DNA of 64,000 nt from an uncultured archaeon (GCA_964486045.1 CAZALK010000001.1:192001-256000); one strand, 5' to 3'; shown: positions 2,623-27,848, numbered from the stretch's first letter. Made by a program: numbers and translations. The notes: a model not told the origin generated them from the sequence alone.

Positions 2623-2664
2623 CTACTTTATCTAATTAGGATTAACCTTAGATTATGACCGATC

Positions 2665-2679
2665 TATATAAAGAAAAAA
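2665..2679 (-). promoter_or_regulatory. T-tract/TATA promoter motif upstream of radA paralogue
   Basis: Sense strand TTTTTTCTTTATATA. Confidence 0.7.
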
Positions 2680-5678: not shown

Positions 5679-5699
5679 TACCCTCTATTTCTTCAGCTA

Positions 5700-5716
5700 A
5701 ATATAAAGAAAAAAAA
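5700..5716 (-). promoter_or_regulatory. T-tract/TATA promoter motif, 21 nt upstream of M50 gene start
   Basis: Sense TTTTTTTTCTTTATATT. Confidence 0.7.
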
Positions 5717-5781
5717 TAAAAAGTGACTATCAGGAAAATGAGGAATGTTTCACTCTACACAAAACATTTAGTTTATAAACC

Positions 5782-5796
5782 TATATAAAGAAAAAA
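5782..5796 (-). promoter_or_regulatory. Second (tandem) T-tract/TATA motif upstream of M50 operon
   Basis: Sense TTTTTTCTTTATATA, identical to the radA copy. Confidence 0.65.
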
Positions 5797-11326: not shown

Positions 11327-11341
11327 TTTTTTCTTTATATT
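11327..11341 (+). promoter_or_regulatory. T-tract/TATA motif upstream of wHTH-hef operon
   Basis: TTTTTTCTTTATATT, 23 nt before ATG 11365 (may double as terminator of the upstream gene). Confidence 0.6.
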
Positions 11342-11364
11342 TATTTAGTTTTACTAAATCAGAA

Positions 11365-15481: not shown

Positions 15482-18022
15482 TTATTTGTTTTTCTTTTTA
15501 TCAGGTCCTTTAATAATTTTCTTACACAAATTTATCCCCAAGCCTGTTTTTTGGTTTAACATATAGGGATTTTCTTTCCTTACTTGAGAGGCAGTATGGT
15601 ATCCTGCTTTATACAATATTCTTGCTCGTACTCTAGCGACATCATTAAGCCGTAAGACCAAATCAAACAATTCCTCGCGAATGCCGTAATGAATCCGAAT
15701 TTTGAGAGTTTCTGCCATCTCTGCTACCTTAGTAAGCTTATCGTATAAATCTATTCCATGTGTACTTAAACTGCTGGCAATAATACCAATAAAATTAATT
15801 ATTCGCTCCAAATTGTCTCGTACTCCAAATAAATCACCAGCCATAATTTTATAATGATCTAATATTTGGTCAATAGGTTCCTCATCTGTCCACTCGAGGA
15901 TTGGTTCCACCATTTTATAGTCTCTTACTCTAAATTCAGATTTCAAGACTTCATAAGCTTCTTTAATGAGATCCTGGAACGTGGATATTTTGGCATTTTC
16001 TAGTTTATAACGGATCATAACCCCCGAAGACGGATAAAGGTAGAGCCTTATAATTAGCTTACCAAACTGGGAGCATTTAATCTTTCCATCACCAGTACTC
16101 ATAATAAGCCCCTTCTCGAACAGATAGTTAATGACATACTGGTTCTTAATACTTTGAGGGATAACATCTTCCATGCATTTTTGCACGTTAGAATCGGGAA
16201 AAGCGATAAGATACAGTAAAAATGCGGTAATATGGTCACAAAATTCAAATGCAAAATCAGTATCACCTGAAAAATTATCAGACACACCATTTTTAAACCC
16301 GCACGAGCATTGGATTCCCATATCAATATCGAACTGACAAGAATGTACTCCAAAACTAGTCTTAATATATCCCCCCAAAGTAGAGTTGGTACATTTAGTA
16401 AGTTTTATTTGATGGCGTTGAGATTTTAACTCATTTACTTTTTTCGGATTGGAATGCAATTTTAAAATGTTAACTGGAGTAATTTCTTTAATCATCAGTA
16501 ATTGTTCAATAGGAATCTTTTGCTCTTTCATATTATGGGAAATTGTGTACCAGAAATAGGTCTTCTCGAAAAATTCTTTAAGTTGTTCAATAGTTATCCT
16601 TTTACTCTCGAAAATTCTTAGTAACACCTGCTCTTTTAAGATATTAATTTTGTTTAACCGTGATTGTAAATTACTATATTTTGGGATCATCGCACTTCTC
16701 ATATGAGGGGATTTGAAATAATTATCCTCAACCCACATTTTCTCATCGATGTTTTTGACTAAAATTATCCCATATCCAACTGAATCTAAGCCTGGTCTTC
16801 CCGCCCTTCCTAAAATTTGGAAGACTTCATTAGGGGAAAAAGCTTTAAAATATGAAAACCCATCCCCATTTTCATGATATCCCTTAAAATTTTTAATATT
16901 GTAGCCTGACGTAGTAAACTTTTTGAAATCTCGTAATATTACCACTCTTGCAGGGGTGTTAATTCCCGCGGATAATGTCGTGGTGCAGCATATTATCTTG
17001 ATGATCCGCTTCTGAAAGTTTTCTTCAATTGTCTTTCTTTCTCGAGCCACCAGTCCTGCATGATGAAAGGCGATTCCCGAACTTAATATTTTAATTAGGT
17101 CTCGATTTCCGCCTTTGATAGAAGTTAATCGTTTCGATAAGGCCTTACAAACTTTCAGCTCTGCCTCTTCCATAAATTTAATAACAACATCTTTAAGATT
17201 TTGAGCGGTTTGTTGTGCTGTTTTTCGCTTATTTAGGAAGATTAGAATTTGTCCTTTATCTTTTAATATGGTTTTGACAATACGTTTGAGAGTAGAGTCT
17301 TTATTCTGGGAAACTTCAATTTTATAGTGTAGAGGTACCGGTCGTTGCTCAGATTTAATTAAAGTAGTCTGATTTCCAAGTGAAGAGAGCCACGAATTGA
17401 AAAACTCAGGGTTCGCGATGGTTGCACTTAAACCAATAATTTGAGGATTATGGAGGAATTCATTTAACCGAACAATAAGAGACTCAAGTCGCGGACCTCG
17501 ATCCGATTCTCCAATGATATGAATTTCATCAATAATTATGGTTGAGATCTCATAAACCCATTCTTTATCATAAAAATTGCGAATGATTGAGTCCATTTTT
17601 TCATAAGTAGTCACAATTATATCTGCTTTTTCCAGCTTCTTATCATCTACATCGTGATCACCTATGGAAAGCTCAACTTTAAGGTCATATCGGGCATAGC
17701 TTTTCTTAAAGTGGAAATATTTCTCGGTCGCTAATGCTTTGAAGGGTACTAGATAGATTGATTTACCGAACTTTTGGAAAATATTATGGATGGCACATAC
17801 TTCTCCTATGAGAGTCTTGCCACTACCAGAGGGAGCACATACTAAAAATGATTTGCGAAAGAATAGGCCTTTTTTAATTGCTTCTTTTTGAATTTCTCGA
17901 AGTTCAAAAATCCTATTTTCGAACAACACCCGTAAAATTCGTTTATCAGGAATAAACTTAGTAATTTCAGCATCCTCTAATGAATCTTCTGTGATTTTCC
18001 CAGTGAAATTTGTAAGACTCAT
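15482..18022 (-). CDS. Hel308/Hjm (Ski2-like) DNA helicase paralogue with inserted SWIM zinc finger
   Basis: LREIQ, APSGSGKT, TTYEK, DEIH, LSAT, FHHAGL, LGRAGRPG, C-terminal RVRAR HhH; CSC...CDH insert. Start reassigned to ATG 18022 because the promoter motif at 18049-18068 lies in the ORF-track extension. Confidence 0.88.
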   Translation of the reverse strand: MSLTNFTGKITEDSLEDAEITKFIPDKRILRVLFENRIFELREIQKEAIKKGLFFRKSFLVCAPSGSGKTLIGEVCAIHNIFQKFGKSIYLVPFKALATEKYFHFKKSYARYDLKVELSIGDHDVDDKKLEKADIIVTTYEKMDSIIRNFYDKEWVYEISTIIIDEIHIIGESDRGPRLESLIVRLNEFLHNPQIIGLSATIANPEFFNSWLSSLGNQTTLIKSEQRPVPLHYKIEVSQNKDSTLKRIVKTILKDKGQILIFLNKRKTAQQTAQNLKDVVIKFMEEAELKVCKALSKRLTSIKGGNRDLIKILSSGIAFHHAGLVARERKTIEENFQKRIIKIICCTTTLSAGINTPARVVILRDFKKFTTSGYNIKNFKGYHENGDGFSYFKAFSPNEVFQILGRAGRPGLDSVGYGIILVKNIDEKMWVEDNYFKSPHMRSAMIPKYSNLQSRLNKINILKEQVLLRIFESKRITIEQLKEFFEKTYFWYTISHNMKEQKIPIEQLLMIKEITPVNILKLHSNPKKVNELKSQRHQIKLTKCTNSTLGGYIKTSFGVHSCQFDIDMGIQCSCGFKNGVSDNFSGDTDFAFEFCDHITAFLLYLIAFPDSNVQKCMEDVIPQSIKNQYVINYLFEKGLIMSTGDGKIKCSQFGKLIIRLYLYPSSGVMIRYKLENAKISTFQDLIKEAYEVLKSEFRVRDYKMVEPILEWTDEEPIDQILDHYKIMAGDLFGVRDNLERIINFIGIIASSLSTHGIDLYDKLTKVAEMAETLKIRIHYGIREELFDLVLRLNDVARVRARILYKAGYHTASQVRKENPYMLNQKTGLGINLCKKIIKGPDKKKNK

Positions 18023-18048
18023 AGTACCAATACTATTTGGACTGGAAT

Positions 18049-18068
18049 AATTTAAAGGAAAAAAAAAA
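18049..18068 (-). promoter_or_regulatory. T-tract/TATA motif upstream of Hel308-like gene
   Basis: Sense T10-CC-TTTAAATT, 26 nt before ATG 18022. Confidence 0.6.
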
Positions 18069-18404
18069 GTTAAAACAAACTGATTATTGTTGGAAAGGTA
18101 TTTCACTAATTTATTTAGAAATATTCTCAAAAATAAGTAAAAATTTATGTCAAAGAATAATAAACATAATATAACACATAGGAAAAAAGCCCTATCTCCC
18201 TAAAAATTTAAACTCTTTCACTTTTTACTCGGGTAATACCTTAATTTAACCCAATTACACTAAAAATAACCAATATATTTTCTACCAGAATTTTAAAGCG
18301 TGTTTTTCATAATACCAAGGTTTATTAAATTTAATACCATCTCTTATATGCTTGAATAGAGATAATTCAAAGTTCCAAGTATAAAATTATAATTTGGTGA
18401 AAGT

Positions 18405-20002: not shown

Positions 20003-20018
20003 TTTTTTCTTTATAAAT
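20003..20018 (+). promoter_or_regulatory. T-tract/TATA motif upstream of five-gene membrane operon
   Basis: TTTTTTCTTTATAAAT, 26 nt before ATG 20045. Confidence 0.7.
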
Positions 20019-20044
20019 ACTCATTTTTTATGTCATAGATAAAG

Positions 20045-22183
20045 ATGACACTTGAAAGTGAGTTAAAGCGTAAAAAAGAAAGTTTGAAGTTCTTCTACCA
20101 AATGGCCCAAGAAGCGTTAGATGCTGATGACTTAGAACAAGCAATCGAAATATCAGCAAAAGGTCTCGAAGAAGCAGAATTGAAAGAACAAGATGAATGG
20201 GCGGAAAAATTTGAAGAATTAAATTCTCAAGTAGAGTCAGCTAAAGAAGCCACCTCTTTAAATACTACCATAGTACGAGAAGATATTACAGTGATTAAAG
20301 GTGTTGGAAAATCTGTTGCAGAAAAACTAAAGGGTGGTGGATTTCATTCTGTTAGAGTAATTGCTGAGGCAACTATCACCCAACTTACTAATATACCGGG
20401 AATTGGTCAGAAAACAGCCGAGAAAATTAATGAGGGGGCGAATGAGCTAATCTCAAGAAAAAATCTTAATGATTTTCCCGAGGATAGTGATATTGAAAGA
20501 TCACAACCAGTGGATGAAATCCCCAGAGCCGAGGAGAATGATTTAGAGGAGAATAATAGAGAAGAACCGGAGCCTGTAAAAAACTCCACTATAGTAGAAA
20601 GCGTTGTAGATAATATTGAACAGGAAAACACACAAAAGGCTTCATTTCCGTGGTTTGAGGAGAAACTCAAAATTAAGAGATCAGCAGTCTCTCAGAAAAC
20701 AAAGGTGAAATCTAATAAAAAAGTTGTATATGAAGAAGTTGTTGATGATTTAACTTCAGACTCTGAATACGATATAGATAATGGTAATATAGAGGATGAA
20801 AACACAATAGGGGTTGAAGATAATACTATTGAAAGTACATTCCACAAAAATCCAGTAGCACAAGATACTATTAACCTTAATGATAGAACTCAAGGTGTTT
20901 TTCGAGAAACAAGCGTTCAGGAACATTCTTCTCCGCAATTAACTCAGAAGATTACACCCCAATCAGAAGAACAGTTACTGTCTTCCGAGAAAAAAGAGAA
21001 TATTGAAAATATCATTCATTCATTACGGGAATCGGGATTTCATATTATAGAGAAAGTAAGGTTATTGAAGGATTTATCAATGAATAGTGATCTCATTGCT
21101 TTGAAGATTATTCACGCGAATGAATTTTTAGATTTGGTGCTAATTCTTCCCATCAAGGTGAGTAACTTGAAAGGAGAAATTAAAATTTCAAATAAACAAG
21201 TAAAATACATCCCGCTTAACGATACATTCAATAAAAATGGCTCTTCCTTCCGGTTGGAATTAAACTCAACTATTAATGACCTCGGAGAAGTGTATAGTGC
21301 GATGCGAGATGACATAATAAGTGAAGGAAAATTGCTTTCTTACCTTAGAAAACAGCTTAAAGTAGACATCTCTATTGAAAAATCCATGACCAAAAAAAAT
21401 CTATTCTTTCGTGCTGGTCCACTTCAATATAAAATATTCATTGAACCACTCTTAGTGTGCAATAATAACGTTGGGTTTCTAGAGAAGATGCTTCCTTTCC
21501 CCTATCTTAAAGATATAAACCTTCATATCATCAATTCCCCCCAATTACCAAACTTTCTTACTTATCTGGAGGAGAAGTTTACACTTCTTGAGGAACATTC
21601 CAATCATAAAAATTCATTAATTTCTTATGAAGATTCCTTTAATCAGTTCTTACAAACTGGGAAGAAATTATCAGTTCCTTTTATAGCATTCGGAATAACA
21701 TTACTAATGTTGGTTTTGTTTCAATTAGTTAACTTGCTGGAATTGGTGGTTAACATTGGATATGCCTTACTTGGAGTCTATTCGACCTCACTAATTTACT
21801 TCTACATCAAATTTTTTAAGACGAAACTTGAAATTCAGACCGAATTTGGAATTCCGCATCATCAAAAAAAGGTAGAAATAGATGATCCAGGGTTAATTAT
21901 AATTAGTGAGGCCTTCTCTGCTGACCTAATGGAGCAATTTGTGTTTGAATGTTTAGGAAAAAACCCAGACTCGTCCTTTATCCAGAAAATTGAGGAGGCA
22001 CACATCAAAGAGAGGTTAAATAACAAAGCAAAAGCAATAGAAATCAAGAATGAGAATTTATTTGAGAAACAAGACGAACTAACCGGTGAAGAAGGACTAG
22101 AATACAACAAAGAGGAAACCGAGTTCCAATTAGAAGAAGACGAGGAGATTTTCCAAAAATATGGATCGTTTTTAGAGGATTGA
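20045..22183 (+). CDS. Membrane-anchored helix-hairpin-helix DNA-binding protein
   Basis: N-terminal helical bundle, tandem HhH (IKGVGKSVAEKL / IPGIGQKTAEKI), acidic linker, alpha/beta domain, two TM helices near the C-terminus. Confidence 0.75.
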   Translation: MTLESELKRKKESLKFFYQMAQEALDADDLEQAIEISAKGLEEAELKEQDEWAEKFEELNSQVESAKEATSLNTTIVREDITVIKGVGKSVAEKLKGGGFHSVRVIAEATITQLTNIPGIGQKTAEKINEGANELISRKNLNDFPEDSDIERSQPVDEIPRAEENDLEENNREEPEPVKNSTIVESVVDNIEQENTQKASFPWFEEKLKIKRSAVSQKTKVKSNKKVVYEEVVDDLTSDSEYDIDNGNIEDENTIGVEDNTIESTFHKNPVAQDTINLNDRTQGVFRETSVQEHSSPQLTQKITPQSEEQLLSSEKKENIENIIHSLRESGFHIIEKVRLLKDLSMNSDLIALKIIHANEFLDLVLILPIKVSNLKGEIKISNKQVKYIPLNDTFNKNGSSFRLELNSTINDLGEVYSAMRDDIISEGKLLSYLRKQLKVDISIEKSMTKKNLFFRAGPLQYKIFIEPLLVCNNNVGFLEKMLPFPYLKDINLHIINSPQLPNFLTYLEEKFTLLEEHSNHKNSLISYEDSFNQFLQTGKKLSVPFIAFGITLLMLVLFQLVNLLELVVNIGYALLGVYSTSLIYFYIKFFKTKLEIQTEFGIPHHQKKVEIDDPGLIIISEAFSADLMEQFVFECLGKNPDSSFIQKIEEAHIKERLNNKAKAIEIKNENLFEKQDELTGEEGLEYNKEETEFQLEEDEEIFQKYGSFLED

Positions 22184-22184
22184 A

Positions 22185-22844
22185 ATGAAAGTATCACTGC
22201 CTATCTGTTTTAAAATTGTATTTCTTGCAGGGATAACTCTCCTCTTTGTTACTTTATTTGTAGATTGGTATACCTTTCAAGTGTTTGATGATGATATATT
22301 AGTAGCCTCTTGGGACTATAATCTTTTTTTCGAGTGGACAACTGAATTCCCTTCAGGTATTATAGTAAACGAAAGTTATCGTCCTGGAAATTTAAACCTC
22401 CCGCTTGCTCTTCATTTTTTATTTGTTGGAGTCACAATTTTCACTGTTTATACTGTTTTATTGAAAGACCTTGAACATTCTGAGAATTTGATTGCACTTA
22501 AAAGTTATTCACTCGGATTTCTATTTTTACTTGCGTTAGTTCTATTCTATATTGTTATTTTTCCTGTAGCGTATTTATTTCCCAACAATTTATATTTTCC
22601 CTCATTGGTAGATAACAACATTGACTTGGCTATGAAACTTTCTTACGCAATTAGTTATGGGTACGTGTTACAGCTTGTCGGTTTTCTATTAATCTTTCCT
22701 TATTCATTACACTATTATCTTACGATATCTAATTTTGAGAAACAGGAGAATACTGATGAGAAAAGAATTGCGTCTTATATCGAGAACGTGCAAGAAACAA
22801 TCGACCTTGATAAATATATCGCAGAAGAGGAATCGTTATCATGA
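22185..22844 (+). CDS. Four-TM membrane protein (tetraspan/claudin-like topology)
   Basis: TM1 ending in DW, beta-rich first loop, TM2-TM3, TM4 preceded by SYGY; acidic C-terminal tail. Confidence 0.65.
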   Translation: MKVSLPICFKIVFLAGITLLFVTLFVDWYTFQVFDDDILVASWDYNLFFEWTTEFPSGIIVNESYRPGNLNLPLALHFLFVGVTIFTVYTVLLKDLEHSENLIALKSYSLGFLFLLALVLFYIVIFPVAYLFPNNLYFPSLVDNNIDLAMKLSYAISYGYVLQLVGFLLIFPYSLHYYLTISNFEKQENTDEKRIASYIENVQETIDLDKYIAEEESLS

Positions 22845-23704
22845 ATAATAACATATTGGATTTAAAATTACAATCGTTAATACACGCTTGTAAAGCTTCT
22901 GGTAATTTCAAAAAATTATCGGTTGTAGGGTTTATTCTTACCAGCAATATCGTTGACGAAATTTCGATAAAGTTAGGCATGCGCCCTCGTCGTAAAAAAG
23001 AGCAAGAAAAACTGTTTGAGTATCTTTCTTTAGTAAATGACGTGTTTGAGAGAAATCTGCAAATTTGCATATTTCATTCGGATCTGGTTAATACGTTAAA
23101 AGAGGTTGAGCTCCTTTTTCTGAAAACGCGGGGTGACCTTCCCTATGAGTATATAAGCCAATTAATAACCTTGTATTATGAACTAAGGAAAATCGAAATT
23201 CCGAATATTCATAAAGGAATGGCAGGCGAGGATTTTTTTGGTAATCCAGGTATGGGTACCCTAAATTTCTTCACTCGACGGGCGAAAGCAAGACAAAAAA
23301 AAGAAAACAAGTTTAAGCCTATCCTCCGCCATACAATAACTGAAAAAGAAAAACAGATCCAAGTCAAGCTAAACAAAAAATTAACCCAATCTGATTTAGA
23401 GATGGCAATCCATCTAAGAAAGATTAAAAGTAGCTTGGATAAAAAAGGGAAGCAAAAGATAATTCTCCAAGGCTCCCTTAAAGACAGTATTATGTATGAA
23501 AGGTCTCAAAGCAAATTAATTGGGTACGTACTTTTAGGTGTGGCGTTACTTACACTGTTATTTGGAAGTGTAGTTCTTGTTGAGACGTTTCTCCTTCCTG
23601 CCACCATGGAGCCACTAAACCATGTAGTATTAATATCATTTGCAGTTGCGTTTTTATTTGTCCTTATTTATCGCAAATATTCTAAAAGAGGAAATATAGC
23701 ATGA
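22841..23704 (+). CDS. Hypothetical membrane protein (helical N-terminus, 2 C-terminal TM)
   Basis: ATGA overlaps with both neighbours; two hydrophobic helices at the C-terminus. Confidence 0.7.
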   Translation: MNNNILDLKLQSLIHACKASGNFKKLSVVGFILTSNIVDEISIKLGMRPRRKKEQEKLFEYLSLVNDVFERNLQICIFHSDLVNTLKEVELLFLKTRGDLPYEYISQLITLYYELRKIEIPNIHKGMAGEDFFGNPGMGTLNFFTRRAKARQKKENKFKPILRHTITEKEKQIQVKLNKKLTQSDLEMAIHLRKIKSSLDKKGKQKIILQGSLKDSIMYERSQSKLIGYVLLGVALLTLLFGSVVLVETFLLPATMEPLNHVVLISFAVAFLFVLIYRKYSKRGNIA

Positions 23705-26700
23705 GAGCTCAATATCATAAAAAAGTGGAAACAACACCTCGTAAGAATACTCGGGAGGTAATAATCGAGGAAAAGGATGGTACTCCTTCACCCAAAGAAA
23801 TACCCACAATATGGCGTGTAAATCCTTCCTATACTCATGCCAATAATACAATATCTATCGTGAGAATTATATTAATAGTCGCAATGGGCACCGTATTTAT
23901 TATTGCTACTTATTTATTGGATTTAAATTTGCAGATCTCATTAATTATGGGAGCATGCATTATTGCAGGGTTTGTTTTTGTGTTTTATGATTATATCGAC
24001 GTAGTAAACAATCTTTTTCGCAAGAGAATAATAATCGATCCAATGGAAAATATTATCTCCTTTTGGGAAAAAAACGACCACACAACTATCTTTTTTACCA
24101 ATAAGAAAGATTTAATTCATAACGGAGTTCAGATCTTTCGAGTCGAAGAGATTCCAGAAAATATTCATGCATCGATAAATTTGTTTTTAAAATCTCTAAG
24201 TGAATATAAAAACATGATAAGCTTTACCTATCAAATAGTCCAAACTCCTCAGGTCTATCTGAAAAGGACCGATAGAAACGTAATAGTTAGGGCTACTGAA
24301 GCTCGACGTACAAGTATCTATTTCTGTGTAAGCTATGCTGTCAAAGGAATATTAACTCAACATAAACTAACCCACTTAAAACAAAGGATGCGTTATGTGG
24401 GGGATGTTTTGCGAAATAATTTCACCGGTAATTTTCATCATTTTAAAATAACCCTTCTTTCGGGGGGTAATTTACTCAATGCGTTACGGACCTATTTTTT
24501 TAAGATTCCCCCCCAAGAAGATAATGCTGAACATGAGACTAAAGATAGACGATCCTTTTCCGTTAAATCTCTATTAAAAGCAGTATTTATGTGTTTCTTA
24601 ATTATATACTTGGATTACACCTTGATTCCTTTTGCAATTCCTCTTCTTTATATCGTTCTTATTAATTTCTTAATGATTGTCCTCATTATTTATCTTTGGT
24701 GGCGACAGCTCCTTTTCATTGTAAGAAAAAGACCATTTCCCAAAAATAAATTTGTTTATATTTATCCATTTCGCGGAACCGTTCTTTTTCGTTTTAGAGG
24801 TTACTCTGATACAGTTTTTATGCATGTCGAAAATAAACTTCTGATAGGTCTGAAGATGTTTAACCTTGCATTTAGTTTTCCTCCGGCATATAGCAGATCA
24901 GACAAATTCATTCAAGCTATTATGAATAAGAAAGTATCGTTTGCCTATACCTGTATGAACACTCCCCTTTCTTTTGCCGCATTCTATAAAGATGGAGCAA
25001 AATACCTCAACCAGAAGACAGAAGATAATCTATTTAACACCCGTTTCAGAATTCAAACTAAAATTGAAGCTCTTAATTGGTTGTCAATGAGATCAGGGAT
25101 GTGGCAAACAATTTTAACTATGTCTGTGCATGAATATGAGCTAACCGATTCAATAAGTAAATCAGAAATCGCTAAACTAGCAGAAAAGCTTGAAGAAAAA
25201 GCAGAAGTTCTACGTAGTGCATTTAATATGAATTTTTTTAATTTTGAGCTAATTCGCTTGAGAAGAAGTAAGTTAATTTCTGGAGTGTTATGTGAAATAT
25301 TAAAGACCAAAGATTATTCTTTTTATGGTTCCGGTCTTAATTACCTTCTATTCCAAGGAAAAGCGCTTTTAAACCTTGTCGAAATTGTGGGTGAACTTAA
25401 GAAAGGGATCGAAACAAAAATCGCGGCGGAGTTTAACACCCCTCTTCATTTAGAGAATCATATAACTTTAGGACATACCATTAATACTGAAGTACTGGAA
25501 GAAGAACTTCCTTTTGGATTTACCGAAGACCAAGCACGAAGGTTGATTATTGTAAACGGACTACTTTCCAGTAGAGAACTATTTGCCATCAAAACAGTTT
25601 CTGAATTAGTTAAAAAGAAAATTTCTTCACTTATTTTTGACTTTCGGGGAAATTGGTCGGTCTTAATTGAACGATTTAAAGGAACACCCCTTGAAAAAGA
25701 CTTTCTCCACTTTAAGCTGGGAAGTGCCTTTACCCTTGATCCTCTAAAATCAGATATACCTTATGACACCGATAACATAGGTTTCTTAAACTATATGTTT
25801 GATGCCTATTCTCTGGCGTTTCGGAAAGATCAAAAAACGGTTGAGATGATACGAAACACCATCATACGTAATCCTAATATGGATACTTCTTCATTAAACT
25901 TGGGTTTAATCAATCAGAATACATGGGAGAAAAGCCCTGGAAGTGATGCCCTTCTTGTGTTGTTCAGCGATTTTACTGAGCAAGACTTACCTTATTTACA
26001 CCTCTCAACATCAGCCCAAACAGGAGGGGTAACCTTTAAAGATTTTATTAACAGTGAAAAAACAGTCATTATTGATCTTTCCATAACTAATGATTATCGA
26101 AAACAAATATTCTTCGTATTTTTAATCCTGTCAAAGATCATCCACTATCTTAACTCCTCAGGAGAATATCAAGAAAAAGTAGTTGTTATTCCTCATACTG
26201 ATATTTTCTTCGATAGTATTTTTATCGATAAATTTACTAATTATGGGAAAATAAATAAGTTCTTAGATCCACTTATCGAAAAAGGATTTGGGTTAATATT
26301 CTCGGCAAACCAAACCCATTATTTGCACAACAACCTTGTTTCCTTTTTCAATAATATAATAGCGTTTAATACCAAAGACTCTCGTGATATAGCTGCAATC
26401 AGCAATGTTATGGGACTTCAAGAATTACAAGGAATTGGGTATTACTCAAAATCCAGGAATCAAACCTATCAGTTTAAATATCTAATGGCAATGAAAAATA
26501 ATGAGGCCGTCGTTAAACGAGAAGATAATTACCAACCCTTTCCAGTGCAATTGGAATGGAAAGATATTAAAAACAGTCCTATCATGGAAGAAAATGAGTT
26601 ATTCGATTATATGAAATCTCAAGGCTATGACCTTAGAGACACGGAAAAGAAAATACGGGAGCAATCTCGTAAAACCATCTTTCAAAAAGATTTAGGAATC

Positions 26701-27492
26701 TACTCTGGATTTATTGCGGAGGCAAAACAGTTTTTAGATGCGTTAAGAACTGTCGAACAGGTTGGGAATTTATATGAAAAACGAGTAAAAAAAGAATTAA
26801 AAACTTATATTTTCCCTAAAGCTTCAAAAATTTATAAAGATAAAGCAGAAATCAAGAAATGCCGTGATGAGATTTTTAGTATATTGATTAAGTTTGGTTA
26901 TCTAGTAGAAGATCATCCAACTAGAGCTAGTGGCTCAGAATCAGTAAGAACTTCTTACTCTGTCGGGGATCATTATGATAAAGCTTTAGACGACGAATTT
27001 GAAACTAAACAGCCCTATAGAATTGAGTCTTTAGATCTTGAAGCAGTCACCCCCCAATCTCCTGACTTTGTTGAAGCTCAAAAAAGAACCTATATTATTA
27101 GGCAGAAAAGTCTTAAAAAAGCGCTTGCTCGGGAGTTTAGTAATTTTCTCTTCGAGCTATTTAACGTCTATGAATTTATTACTCATAAGCAATATAAAAA
27201 TGCGTTAAAAGTCGAACATAACCTTGTACGCAGGTTCCTTATAGAAGTGTATACACATTACTTTAATGCCAATTATTTAATAACCACTAAAGATCTTACT
27301 GAATTTATATCCCATCTCGTAGCTGAGACAGAGATACCTTTTTCAGAGGAAGAGCTCATAAGTTACTTAGAACGATACCAAGTTATCGATTTTGACCATT
27401 CTGATATACAATCACTTGCAAACGAGATTTATGAGTTTATTTCAGTATTTTTTGATAAAATTCAGTTATTCATGTATAAAGATGAGGAGTGA
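23701..27492 (+). CDS. Large membrane-bound VirB4/HerA/FtsK-fold protein with degenerate ATPase motifs
   Basis: Two 2TM+alpha/beta modules, then LGH...PFG..RRLIIVNGLLSSRE (Walker A position), LIFDFRGNW, FTLDPL, TVIIDLS, VVVIPHTD (Walker B position), KGFGLIFSANQ. Confidence 0.7.
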   Translation: MRAQYHKKVETTPRKNTREVIIEEKDGTPSPKEIPTIWRVNPSYTHANNTISIVRIILIVAMGTVFIIATYLLDLNLQISLIMGACIIAGFVFVFYDYIDVVNNLFRKRIIIDPMENIISFWEKNDHTTIFFTNKKDLIHNGVQIFRVEEIPENIHASINLFLKSLSEYKNMISFTYQIVQTPQVYLKRTDRNVIVRATEARRTSIYFCVSYAVKGILTQHKLTHLKQRMRYVGDVLRNNFTGNFHHFKITLLSGGNLLNALRTYFFKIPPQEDNAEHETKDRRSFSVKSLLKAVFMCFLIIYLDYTLIPFAIPLLYIVLINFLMIVLIIYLWWRQLLFIVRKRPFPKNKFVYIYPFRGTVLFRFRGYSDTVFMHVENKLLIGLKMFNLAFSFPPAYSRSDKFIQAIMNKKVSFAYTCMNTPLSFAAFYKDGAKYLNQKTEDNLFNTRFRIQTKIEALNWLSMRSGMWQTILTMSVHEYELTDSISKSEIAKLAEKLEEKAEVLRSAFNMNFFNFELIRLRRSKLISGVLCEILKTKDYSFYGSGLNYLLFQGKALLNLVEIVGELKKGIETKIAAEFNTPLHLENHITLGHTINTEVLEEELPFGFTEDQARRLIIVNGLLSSRELFAIKTVSELVKKKISSLIFDFRGNWSVLIERFKGTPLEKDFLHFKLGSAFTLDPLKSDIPYDTDNIGFLNYMFDAYSLAFRKDQKTVEMIRNTIIRNPNMDTSSLNLGLINQNTWEKSPGSDALLVLFSDFTEQDLPYLHLSTSAQTGGVTFKDFINSEKTVIIDLSITNDYRKQIFFVFLILSKIIHYLNSSGEYQEKVVVIPHTDIFFDSIFIDKFTNYGKINKFLDPLIEKGFGLIFSANQTHYLHNNLVSFFNNIIAFNTKDSRDIAAISNVMGLQELQGIGYYSKSRNQTYQFKYLMAMKNNEAVVKREDNYQPFPVQLEWKDIKNSPIMEENELFDYMKSQGYDLRDTEKKIREQSRKTIFQKDLGIYSGFIAEAKQFLDALRTVEQVGNLYEKRVKKELKTYIFPKASKIYKDKAEIKKCRDEIFSILIKFGYLVEDHPTRASGSESVRTSYSVGDHYDKALDDEFETKQPYRIESLDLEAVTPQSPDFVEAQKRTYIIRQKSLKKALAREFSNFLFELFNVYEFITHKQYKNALKVEHNLVRRFLIEVYTHYFNANYLITTKDLTEFISHLVAETEIPFSEEELISYLERYQVIDFDHSDIQSLANEIYEFISVFFDKIQLFMYKDEE

Positions 27493-27848
27493 TAATGAGC
27501 GTTAGCAAAAACCAAAAAACTCTGTTGATAGAAATGGTTGAGGAGATCCTGCTTAACGAAGGTGAGCTTGAAACTTTGAAACTTCTTATTAATGATCTAA
27601 GCACGGGAAAAATTGATTCAAAACAACTAAAAATCGCAATCATTAAGAGTAGAGCAAATGCTTTAGAACGAATTATTGATATATTCCCTTTTTATCATAA
27701 AAGAATACTAAACCAAAAAGAAATCGATAATTTTGCTACAGATAATAATACTCCTCCTGAAGCACTCCTAGAATTAGAAGAAAAAAACAAGTTTCTCGAA
27801 GAGATCGGAATCAGGATAAATAAAATTGTAAGTAATTTGAGCACTTAA
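27489..27848 (+). CDS. Small helical hypothetical protein, last gene of membrane operon
   Basis: GTGA overlap with upstream gene; SD GAGGAG. Confidence 0.65.
   Translation: MIMSVSKNQKTLLIEMVEEILLNEGELETLKLLINDLSTGKIDSKQLKIAIIKSRANALERIIDIFPFYHKRILNQKEIDNFATDNNTPPEALLELEEKNKFLEEIGIRINKIVSNLST

Follow-up and report, generated by a model that had tools for sequence, protein, structure and literature searches.

A chromosomal VirB4-like protein of Asgard archaea with a duplicated membrane module and replaced ATPase motifs

A VirB4-type protein in an Asgard genome

We have analyzed a stretch of 64,000 nucleotides (hereafter the window, meaning this stretch at its full length) from the genome of an uncultured Asgard (Loki-type) archaeon (GCA_964486045.1 CAZALK010000001.1:192001-256000). 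It contains the gene P0001 (23701..27492, + strand), and the predicted structure of its product makes it very probable that we are dealing with a chromosomal, domesticated VirB4-type protein, built on the plan of a VirB4 N-terminal domain followed by a HerA-clade C-terminal domain and provided besides with two membrane hairpins, a winged helix and a helical tail. The Walker A and Walker B residues of its ATPase-fold domain are replaced, and this same domain is under strong purifying selection. An earlier note on the window, made from the sequence alone, had already described a HerA/VirB4-like pseudo-ATPase with a tandem repeat in its N-terminal half, encoded by a long intact open reading frame (ORF). 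The frame is indeed open from end to end and codes for 1263 amino acids. The window is AT-rich (about 32% G+C), and the composition of P0001 is the same as that of the chromosome around it.

The domains follow each other in the order transmembrane (TM) hairpin, alpha/beta module, TM hairpin, alpha/beta module, HerA/VirB4-fold domain, winged helix and helical tail. All the structural statements made here rest on AlphaFold2 (AF2) models of two halves of the protein (residues 1-560 and 540-1263), built with an alignment of 102 sequences, and the taxon labels of the relatives are those of the source databases.

Fold and family identity

P0001 has no match in Pfam or NCBIfam. Neither it nor 31 relatives matched the VirB4 models of these collections (Pfam PF03135, CagE_TrbE_VirB), and the canonical PF03135 domain is absent from the whole genome. 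The family profile found nothing at E 10 among all PDB sequences, and the DUF87 model gave no match above the curated cut-off for P0001, the best value among the 31 relatives being E 9.4e-4 (2 members). Profile-profile alignment (hhalign) of the family with the DUF87 genes of the same genome reached a probability of 71% (E 3.6e-5).

The predicted structures were more informative. The model of the C-terminal half (predicted local distance difference test, pLDDT, 81) retrieved with Foldseek the translocase HerA (4d2i, E 5.7e-11) and VirB4 (4ag5, E 9e-8), along with SIR2-HerA, DndH-C and TrwB. In VIA searches HerA 4d2i, DndH-C 7es4 and VirB4 4ag5 were tied at Z 23.7 over about 320 residues (329 in the alignment with 4ag5_B). 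These matches place the RecA-like HerA/VirB4-fold domain at residues 573-966 (25417..26598, +). The model of the N-terminal half (pLDDT 87; predicted template modelling score 0.86) was far more selective. All 14 of its significant Foldseek matches were TrwK, the VirB4 of plasmid R388, and in an unbiased VIA comparison with 48,161 chains TrwK came first with Z 24.5 (root mean square deviation 3.9 over 312 residues, residues 113-560 of the model lying on TrwK 15-395), the runner-up reaching only Z 9.2. Since the N-terminal half matches solely the TrwK/VirB4 N-terminal domain, we assign P0001 to VirB4 rather than to HerA. The approximately 540 residues ahead of the ATPase-fold domain correspond to the VirB4 N-terminal domain, and the HerA alignment begins at chain residue 43, leaving room for a short HAS-barrel remnant. 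The HerA/VirB4 fold postulated in the earlier note is therefore supported by AF2, Foldseek and VIA together, and the N-terminal half sharpens it to VirB4.

Behind TrwK, the structural neighbours of the hairpin-plus-module unit were chains of the mycobacterial type VII secretion systems ESX-3 and ESX-5 (6lar_G, Z 9.2; 7b9f_E, Z 7.8), a resemblance that in the models appears weak; ESX systems also include an FtsK-like ATPase. A reading of P0001 as FtsK-like, with a TM anchor, a motor and a winged-helix gamma domain, was considered and rejected, because FtsK reaches a lower score (Z 14.5) and the N-terminal half resembles VirB4.

The winged-helix-like region occupies about residues 1026-1104 (26776..27012, +), is modelled as helices plus a beta hairpin and corresponds to the conserved C-terminal end of the short forms described below. 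It gave weak MAGE matches in 6 of 31 long forms, and PadR, HTH_34 and HTH_24 matches below threshold in the short forms. After it, and after a disordered acidic linker (pLDDT <50), comes a C-terminal helical bundle at residues 1138-1259 (27112..27477, +; helices 599-720 in the numbering of the model). In the short forms the protein stops behind the winged helix, and no such bundle is present in the short and fused forms that were aligned.

Loss of the ATP site

In the model the Walker A place is taken by NGLLSSRE (residues 619-626, 25555..25578, +), which lies between a strand (614-618) and a helix beginning near residue 622, i.e., at the position of the P-loop. Profile alignment to the intact DUF87 ATPases of the genome sets IVNGLLSSR-E on ITGKSGSGKS, with R625 at the lysine and S624 at a glycine. 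The lysine is thus changed to arginine, the P-loop glycines to bulky or polar residues, and the serine or threonine to glutamate or aspartate. The Walker B place reads VVVIPHTD (residues 827-834, 26179..26202, +), opening with a strand (827-830) that is the Walker B strand and followed by PHTD, and here the aspartate of the long form is changed to proline. These are family characters. In 102 orthologues the Walker A place follows the pattern N-G-x4-R-[E/D] (N619 in 99, G620 in 101, R625 in 99, with lysine once, and E or D626 in 89), and the Walker B place the pattern K-hhhh-P-x-h-D (K826 and P831 in all 102, D834 in 99). Residues that have been replaced are therefore among the best conserved of the protein, as expected of a remodelled pocket and not of drift.

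Distant relatives in other Asgard families have G-G-x3-E-R at Walker A and have mostly kept hhhhD[D/E/S] at Walker B. No GxxxxGK[S/T] was found at the Walker A site in any of the 124 superfamily representatives in which the region could be aligned, so the P-loop had already been lost in the common ancestor of the whole superfamily. The motifs point in this way to a stepwise erosion, with Walker B lost in addition in the long form. Walker A lysine-to-arginine changes abolish hydrolysis in P-loop NTPases, and by its motifs P0001 is not expected to hydrolyze ATP. The three motif strings on which the earlier note had based its claim of lost catalytic residues were exactly where it had placed them, and the loss at Walker A and Walker B holds for the family, no orthologue or distant relative having an intact Walker A. 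The third string, LIEKG (residues 858-862, from nucleotide 26272), which the note took as the arginine-finger position, lies roughly opposite EGRKFG of a HerA-like (DUF87) paralogue of the same genome (L002), in a profile alignment whose register is uncertain.

Selection and distribution

The ratio of nonsynonymous to synonymous substitution rates (dN/dS, Nei-Gojobori) was calculated for eight pairs of orthologues with 77-95% amino-acid identity. It was 0.09-0.22 for the whole gene and 0.06-0.18 for the dead ATPase-fold domain, which had the lowest value in 6 of the 8 pairs. Such values in the dead domain indicate strong purifying selection, so that relaxed selection is refuted and the domain is not decaying. 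Invariant columns numbered 55 in the alignment of 31 sequences and 29 in that of 102. With purifying selection on one side and a dead site in all relatives on the other, the retained non-catalytic role that the earlier note had proposed is a reasonable reading.

We found 113 full-length homologues of 1220-1310 residues, every one in Asgard metagenome-assembled genomes (MAGs; labelled Promethearchaeota, Lokiarchaeota and a few Thor-, Hermod-, Hod- and Helarchaeota) and every one annotated as "hypothetical". The long form is present in 102 of the 134 genomes of the window's family, plus a few others, and a search with a short relative showed that 131 of 400 Asgard genomes, belonging to 38 of 85 genera, contain a member of the superfamily. 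When 1.84 billion representatives were searched, the best 150 matches were all members of the family and no active relative was among them. Several MAG orthologues carry single in-frame TAA, TGA or TAG stops.

The same genome holds a second copy of the gene, 41% identical (G000:C14:47254-51060, -, equivalent to L048:6222-10136, -), located without the small operon partners and interrupted by one in-frame TAG exactly within the Walker-A-like loop (NGAPY*RE). Reading this TAG as pyrrolysine was rejected, no PylS being found above the cut-off in the genome, and for this reason we take the second copy as a pseudogene or an assembly error.

Duplication of the N-terminal unit and membrane topology

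Each of the two modules is preceded by a pair of long hydrophobic helices. The first hairpin (residues 49-95, 23845..23985, +) consists of AF2 helices 49-74 and 77-95 (pLDDT >90) and leads into module 1 (residues 105-275, 24013..24525, +), which seems to be the added copy. The second (residues 288-332, 24562..24696, +; helices 288-311 and 315-332) leads into module 2 (residues 345-545, 24733..25335, +), and both modules take part in the match to the TrwK N-terminal domain. When sub-alignments of residues 105-275 and 345-545 from 31 homologues were compared with hhalign, they matched with a probability of 98.3% (E 1.2e-14, 161 columns). The tandem repeat behind TM hairpins that had been noticed from the sequence is thus borne out by the profile-profile comparison and the AF2 helices, and all eight of the repeat strings quoted at the time were found, beginning at residues 129, 138, 173 and 237 in the first copy and 371, 380, 412 and 504 in the second (the two sets span residues 129-253 and 371-520). 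In the sequence basic residues border both hairpins at both ends. We infer from the models a protein with four TM helices, with its N-terminus, both modules and the remainder predicted to be cytoplasmic.

In a tree of modules, the module 1 and module 2 clades of the long form were sisters (approximate likelihood ratio test, SH-aLRT, 99 and 96 for the clades and 91 for the pair) and stood apart from all single units, although the tree, a quick search on short, divergent sequences, is moderate evidence. Their sister position means that the duplication is specific to the long-form lineage. Single-module ORFs of the split form (see next section) matched module 2 better, with E 1e-12 to 1e-19, than module 1, with E 1e-9 to 1e-13 (hmmsearch). 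The tandem duplication of the N-terminal unit is thus real, and the module tree suggests with moderate confidence that it is confined to the long-form lineage.

Three architectures and a putative frameshift site

The superfamily appears in three architectures. The long form has two hairpin-module units, as in P0001. The fused form, about 760-790 residues long and labelled Thorarchaeota, has one unit plus the C-terminal domain and the winged helix. In the split form the unit is in an ORF of its own, and the stop of this ORF overlaps the ORF of the C-terminal domain, which lies in the -1 frame. At the junction of the split form a heptamer T_TTT_TT(C/A/T) with a stop immediately after it is found in 12 genomes of five families, of which 11 were examined in detail (heptamer loci L051:1447-1460 (+), L055, L056, L058, L059, L061 and L062-L064, all in other Asgard genomes). 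In 10 of the genomes examined in detail, conserved residues of the downstream ORF precede any start codon. In most lineages strong hairpins begin 5-6 nt past the heptamer (z down to -3.0, each sequence folded alone), and a consensus RNA structure behind the site across lineages was not found. The hypothetical -1 products are colinear across the junction with the single-ORF forms and with P0001.

The operon

P0001 takes fourth place in a tight run of five genes. The first (20045..22183, +) codes for 712 residues with a RadA-N-like helix-hairpin-helix (HhH) pair (Pfam HHH_5, 1.8e-12; NCBIfam RadA N-terminus) and a C-terminal TM hairpin, and is syntenic in 6 of 8 wider loci. The second (22185..22844, +), a four-TM protein of 219 residues belonging to no known family, is syntenic in all 27 long-form loci for which the upstream flank was fetched. 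The third (22841..23704, +; 287 residues, C-terminal TM hairpin) has a stop that overlaps the start of P0001, and the fifth (27489..27848, +; 119 residues, helical) a start that overlaps its stop. Within the fetched flanks, the order four-TM protein, hairpin protein, P0001, 119-residue protein and GNAT is kept in 29 of 29 related long-form loci. The last of these is a GNAT acetyltransferase-like half fused to a DUF998 multi-TM domain (27938-29845, +), and in 25 of the 29 loci it comes immediately after the operon.

As possible counterparts of VirB2, VirB3, VirB6 and other type IV secretion proteins the operon offers the four-TM protein and two hairpin proteins, none of them matching any such family. 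Nor, at the sequence level, did family scans relate any of the partners to CedA, CedA1 or TedC, in scans that included no comparison with CedA or TedC profiles, and the four-TM and hairpin partners had no ESM Atlas model or informative cluster. General scans of the neighbouring ORFs, with no search aimed at these families, turned up no NurA, Mre11 or Rad50 domain.

Recombination genes and a shared promoter motif

The operon forms part of a cluster of about 50 kb that contains a RadA paralogue, Hef-like and Hel308-like helicases, a FEN1-like gene and a paralogue of transcription factor B (TFB). The most conserved neighbour is the divergently placed Hel308-like helicase of superfamily 2 (15482..18130, -; Pfam DEAD, Helicase_C and Helicase_dom4_arc), which adjoins the operon in 6 of 8 wider loci with 60-74% identity and is also found beside short forms (L039, L040). 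In these wider loci, which come from five genera, the conserved set extends to the HhH protein and the divergent Hel308-like helicase, usually with the Hef-like helicase alongside. The RadA/Rad51 paralogue (1399-2622, -; Rad51, 1.4e-69) has its HhH pair at the C-terminus and not at the N-terminus (HHH_5 at residues 349-398), and the FEN1-like gene is at positions 182437-183531 of contig C1.

In other families the genes upstream of the short forms code for RadA, an M28-like membrane protein and a four-TM protein, and the gene downstream codes for a metallo-beta-lactamase; in an alternative setting the short forms stand beside a Hel308-like helicase and a FEN1-like nuclease. The membrane protein that frameshift-type lineages encode between RadA and the four-TM gene is M28-peptidase/nicastrin-like and 884-1029 residues long (L042:1401-4052, +; L044:7915-11001, -). 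The gene found downstream of the P0001 relatives in these lineages has a metallo-beta-lactamase fold, which may recall the nuclease domain of bacterial ComEC. In another genus (L084, G170:C9:546000-565000) the TFB paralogue, an 889-residue prenyltransferase-toroid protein, the Hef-like helicase, an M50B-like protein and the operon are found together in a changed order. A gene set that is kept in a different order argues for functional linkage and not for inherited order.

The cluster also shares a promoter-like motif, T6CTTTATA. The copy of the operon, TTTTTTCTTTATAAATA (20003..20019, +), lies 26 nt ahead of the ATG of its first gene. Sites in the window are at 2663-2679 (-), 5698-5714 (-), 5780-5796 (-), 11327-11343 (+), 20003-20019 (+) and 29876-29892 (+), and they precede the RadA paralogue (directly upstream of it), the M50B-like membrane protein, a 203-residue gene, the operon and the gene after the operon. 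Allowing up to 3 mismatches in the 17-mer, 19 copies were counted in the window against 6.4 expected. The exact 13-mer, TTTTTTCTTTATA, has 28 copies in the 5.18-Mb genome, 10 of them within 50 kb of contig C1 (171578-221888).

A possible role at the membrane

P0001 may well act as a passive docking platform for the handling of DNA at the membrane, and not as a pump. VirB4-type proteins oligomerize, and in the mechanism that we propose P0001 would form a fixed oligomeric platform that its four TM helices anchor to the cytoplasmic face of the membrane and that hydrolyzes no ATP. The winged helix, together with the HhH protein of the operon, would hold the DNA, and the four-TM and hairpin proteins would make up the membrane part. 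The work itself would be left to the active motors of the regulon, i.e., the Hel308-like and Hef-like helicases, the RadA paralogue and the FEN1-like nuclease. The likeliest job of such an assembly would be to take up or exchange DNA, or to support recombination coupled to the membrane, by analogy with the type-IV-secretion-derived Ced and Ted systems. Several points weigh against this. The HhH domain and the winged helix are predicted to be cytoplasmic, a location that would fit the tethering of intracellular DNA as well as import, and every sequence match of the winged helix is below the curated thresholds. The operon partners show no similarity to VirB2, VirB3, VirB6 or CedA detectable in Pfam and other family scans, so that a channel or pilus is unsupported. 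Besides, the linkage to recombination genes is correlative, and an arginine in place of the Walker lysine does not strictly exclude nucleotide binding.

As a more tentative extension, Asgard archaea could possess a chromosomal, type-IV-secretion-derived apparatus for DNA exchange or membrane recombination, with an ATP-dead VirB4 as its platform and a TFB paralogue of its own as regulator. It would then be of consequence how many modules a subunit has: tandem duplication would have hard-wired two of them in Loki-type lineages, and other lineages might obtain module-only and fusion proteins from one locus by programmed -1 frameshifting.

It is unlikely, but deserves consideration, that the platform serves something other than DNA, namely a pilus, a secretion or membrane-remodelling complex, or a membrane-tethered winged-helix regulator. 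Bacteria require VirB4 not only to transfer DNA but also to build pili, and R388 structures (7o41 and 8rtd) are among the matches. Also compatible with this are the predominance of small membrane proteins in the operon, the M28-peptidase-like membrane protein that precedes the gene in other lineages, and the weak likeness of the hairpin-plus-module unit to the ESX-3 chain 6lar_G. However, it is DNA enzymes (RadA, Hel308-like, FEN1-like and Hef-like) that constantly accompany the gene in at least five Asgard families, the first gene of the operon bears a DNA-binding HhH pair, and no pilin-like or secretin-like partner was detected.

We consider it rather improbable that P0001 is still an NTPase or a nucleotide sensor, in which the N-G-x4-R-[E/D] loop with K826, P831 and D834 would bind a nucleotide or a phosphorylated ligand for switching or slow hydrolysis. 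The conservation of the replaced positions, among the highest in the protein, would suit a specific role of the pocket better than neutral loss, and the distant relatives retain the acidic pair at Walker B. On the other hand, the glycines of the P-loop have become leucine, serine or glutamate, an acidic residue stands before or after the arginine in every lineage and should repel phosphate, and to the established effect of the Walker A lysine-to-arginine change on hydrolysis the long form adds the substitution of proline for the Walker B aspartate.

We have similar doubts about the hetero-oligomer put forward in the earlier note. P0001 would here be a dead subunit that takes turns with an active HerA/VirB4 ATPase from another locus, or sits on it as a cap. 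Other ATPase families do have rings in which active and dead subunits are mixed, and at least eight DUF87 (HerA-type) genes of this genome carry an intact GxxGxGK[S/T]. However, none of the DUF87 genes is within the conserved neighbourhood, whose conserved partners are superfamily 2 helicases and RadA and not HerA-type ATPases. The sole paralogue of P0001 in the genome is also dead, with its in-frame stop, and the exact 13-mer was found neither beside any DUF87 match nor at the paralogue, so that the proposed hetero-oligomer is left without support. Finally, it is hardly credible that P0001 has no present function and is what decay has left of an integrated conjugative element: VirB4 genes usually belong to mobile elements and several MAG copies have single in-frame stops, but the dN/dS values (0.06-0.22), the 55 and 29 invariant columns, the presence in 102 of 134 family genomes with fixed synteny, the chromosome-like composition and the lack of an integrase or relaxase among the neighbourhood ORFs examined all speak against it.

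In the literature VirB4 appears as the conserved motor ATPase that serves type IV secretion and conjugation. The present family is of this type without the motor site; it has been kept by strong selection across at least 38 Asgard genera, and additional copies of recombination enzymes are always its neighbours. If the docking platform that we favor is real, nature would have provided a clean case of a translocase converted into a scaffold, and a DNA-exchange or membrane-recombination machine of this kind would offer a testable handle on DNA exchange and recombination in the closest archaeal relatives of eukaryotes. In practical terms, the family is nameless in all the databases searched and could be annotated from the features described here, and the frameshift-joined forms are at present called by gene callers as two truncated genes.

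Comparison with known systems

Full-text literature searches found no link of Asgard archaea to VirB4 or Ced-type systems, no VirB4 pseudo-ATPase and no mention of the split-form frameshift. What is new is the duplicated long form, the connection among the three architectures, the assignment of the N-terminal half, both modules included, to the VirB4 N-terminal domain, the stepwise erosion of motifs, the module phylogeny and the dispersed regulon marked by a motif.

With VirB4/TrwK/TrbE/CagE (PDB 7o42, 7o43, 8rtd and 8rtb; T. pseudethanolicus VirB4 4ag5/4ag6) P0001 shares the two-part architecture. In VirB3-VirB4 fusions VirB3 comes ahead of the VirB4 N-terminal domain, and hairpin 1 of P0001 appears to be in the equivalent place. 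Unlike VirB4, P0001 has no GK[S/T] at Walker A, no DE at Walker B and no PF03135 match. It adds a second TM hairpin, the lineage-specific tandem module, the winged helix and the helical tail, and is chromosomal, located in a recombination cluster without recognizable VirB2, VirB6 or VirB8 partners. The C-terminal fold is equally close to HerA (DUF87) translocases (4d2i; the SIR2-HerA and DUF4297-HerA defence complexes) and to the DndH C-domain (7es4), with weak sequence similarity, but the N-terminal half is of VirB4 type and the catalytic motifs of HerA are absent. The single-module and frameshift-joined Asgard relatives have in common with P0001 the type of C-terminal domain, the winged helix and the recombination neighbourhood. 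They differ in having one hairpin-plus-module unit and an acidic Walker B pair, whereas P0001 has two units, a proline at the Walker B aspartate and the extra C-terminal bundle.

A functional parallel may be drawn with the Ced (Sulfolobales) and Ted (Thermoproteales) DNA import systems. These are domesticated type IV secretion systems, in which Beltran et al. (2023, PMC9905601) describe CedB and TedB as AAA+ ATPases that presumably drive the translocation of DNA. P0001 has the fold without the catalytic motifs and cannot use a canonical P-loop, and its operon belongs to a different phylum and includes no evident pilin. Nevertheless, the systems are alike in being archaeal and chromosomal, in joining a VirB4-like protein to small two-TM and multi-TM proteins, and in their link to DNA repair. 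In Sulfolobus, Ced belongs to the TFB3-dependent damage regulon (PMC6101591), and the P0001 cluster likewise has a TFB paralogue and a shared promoter motif.

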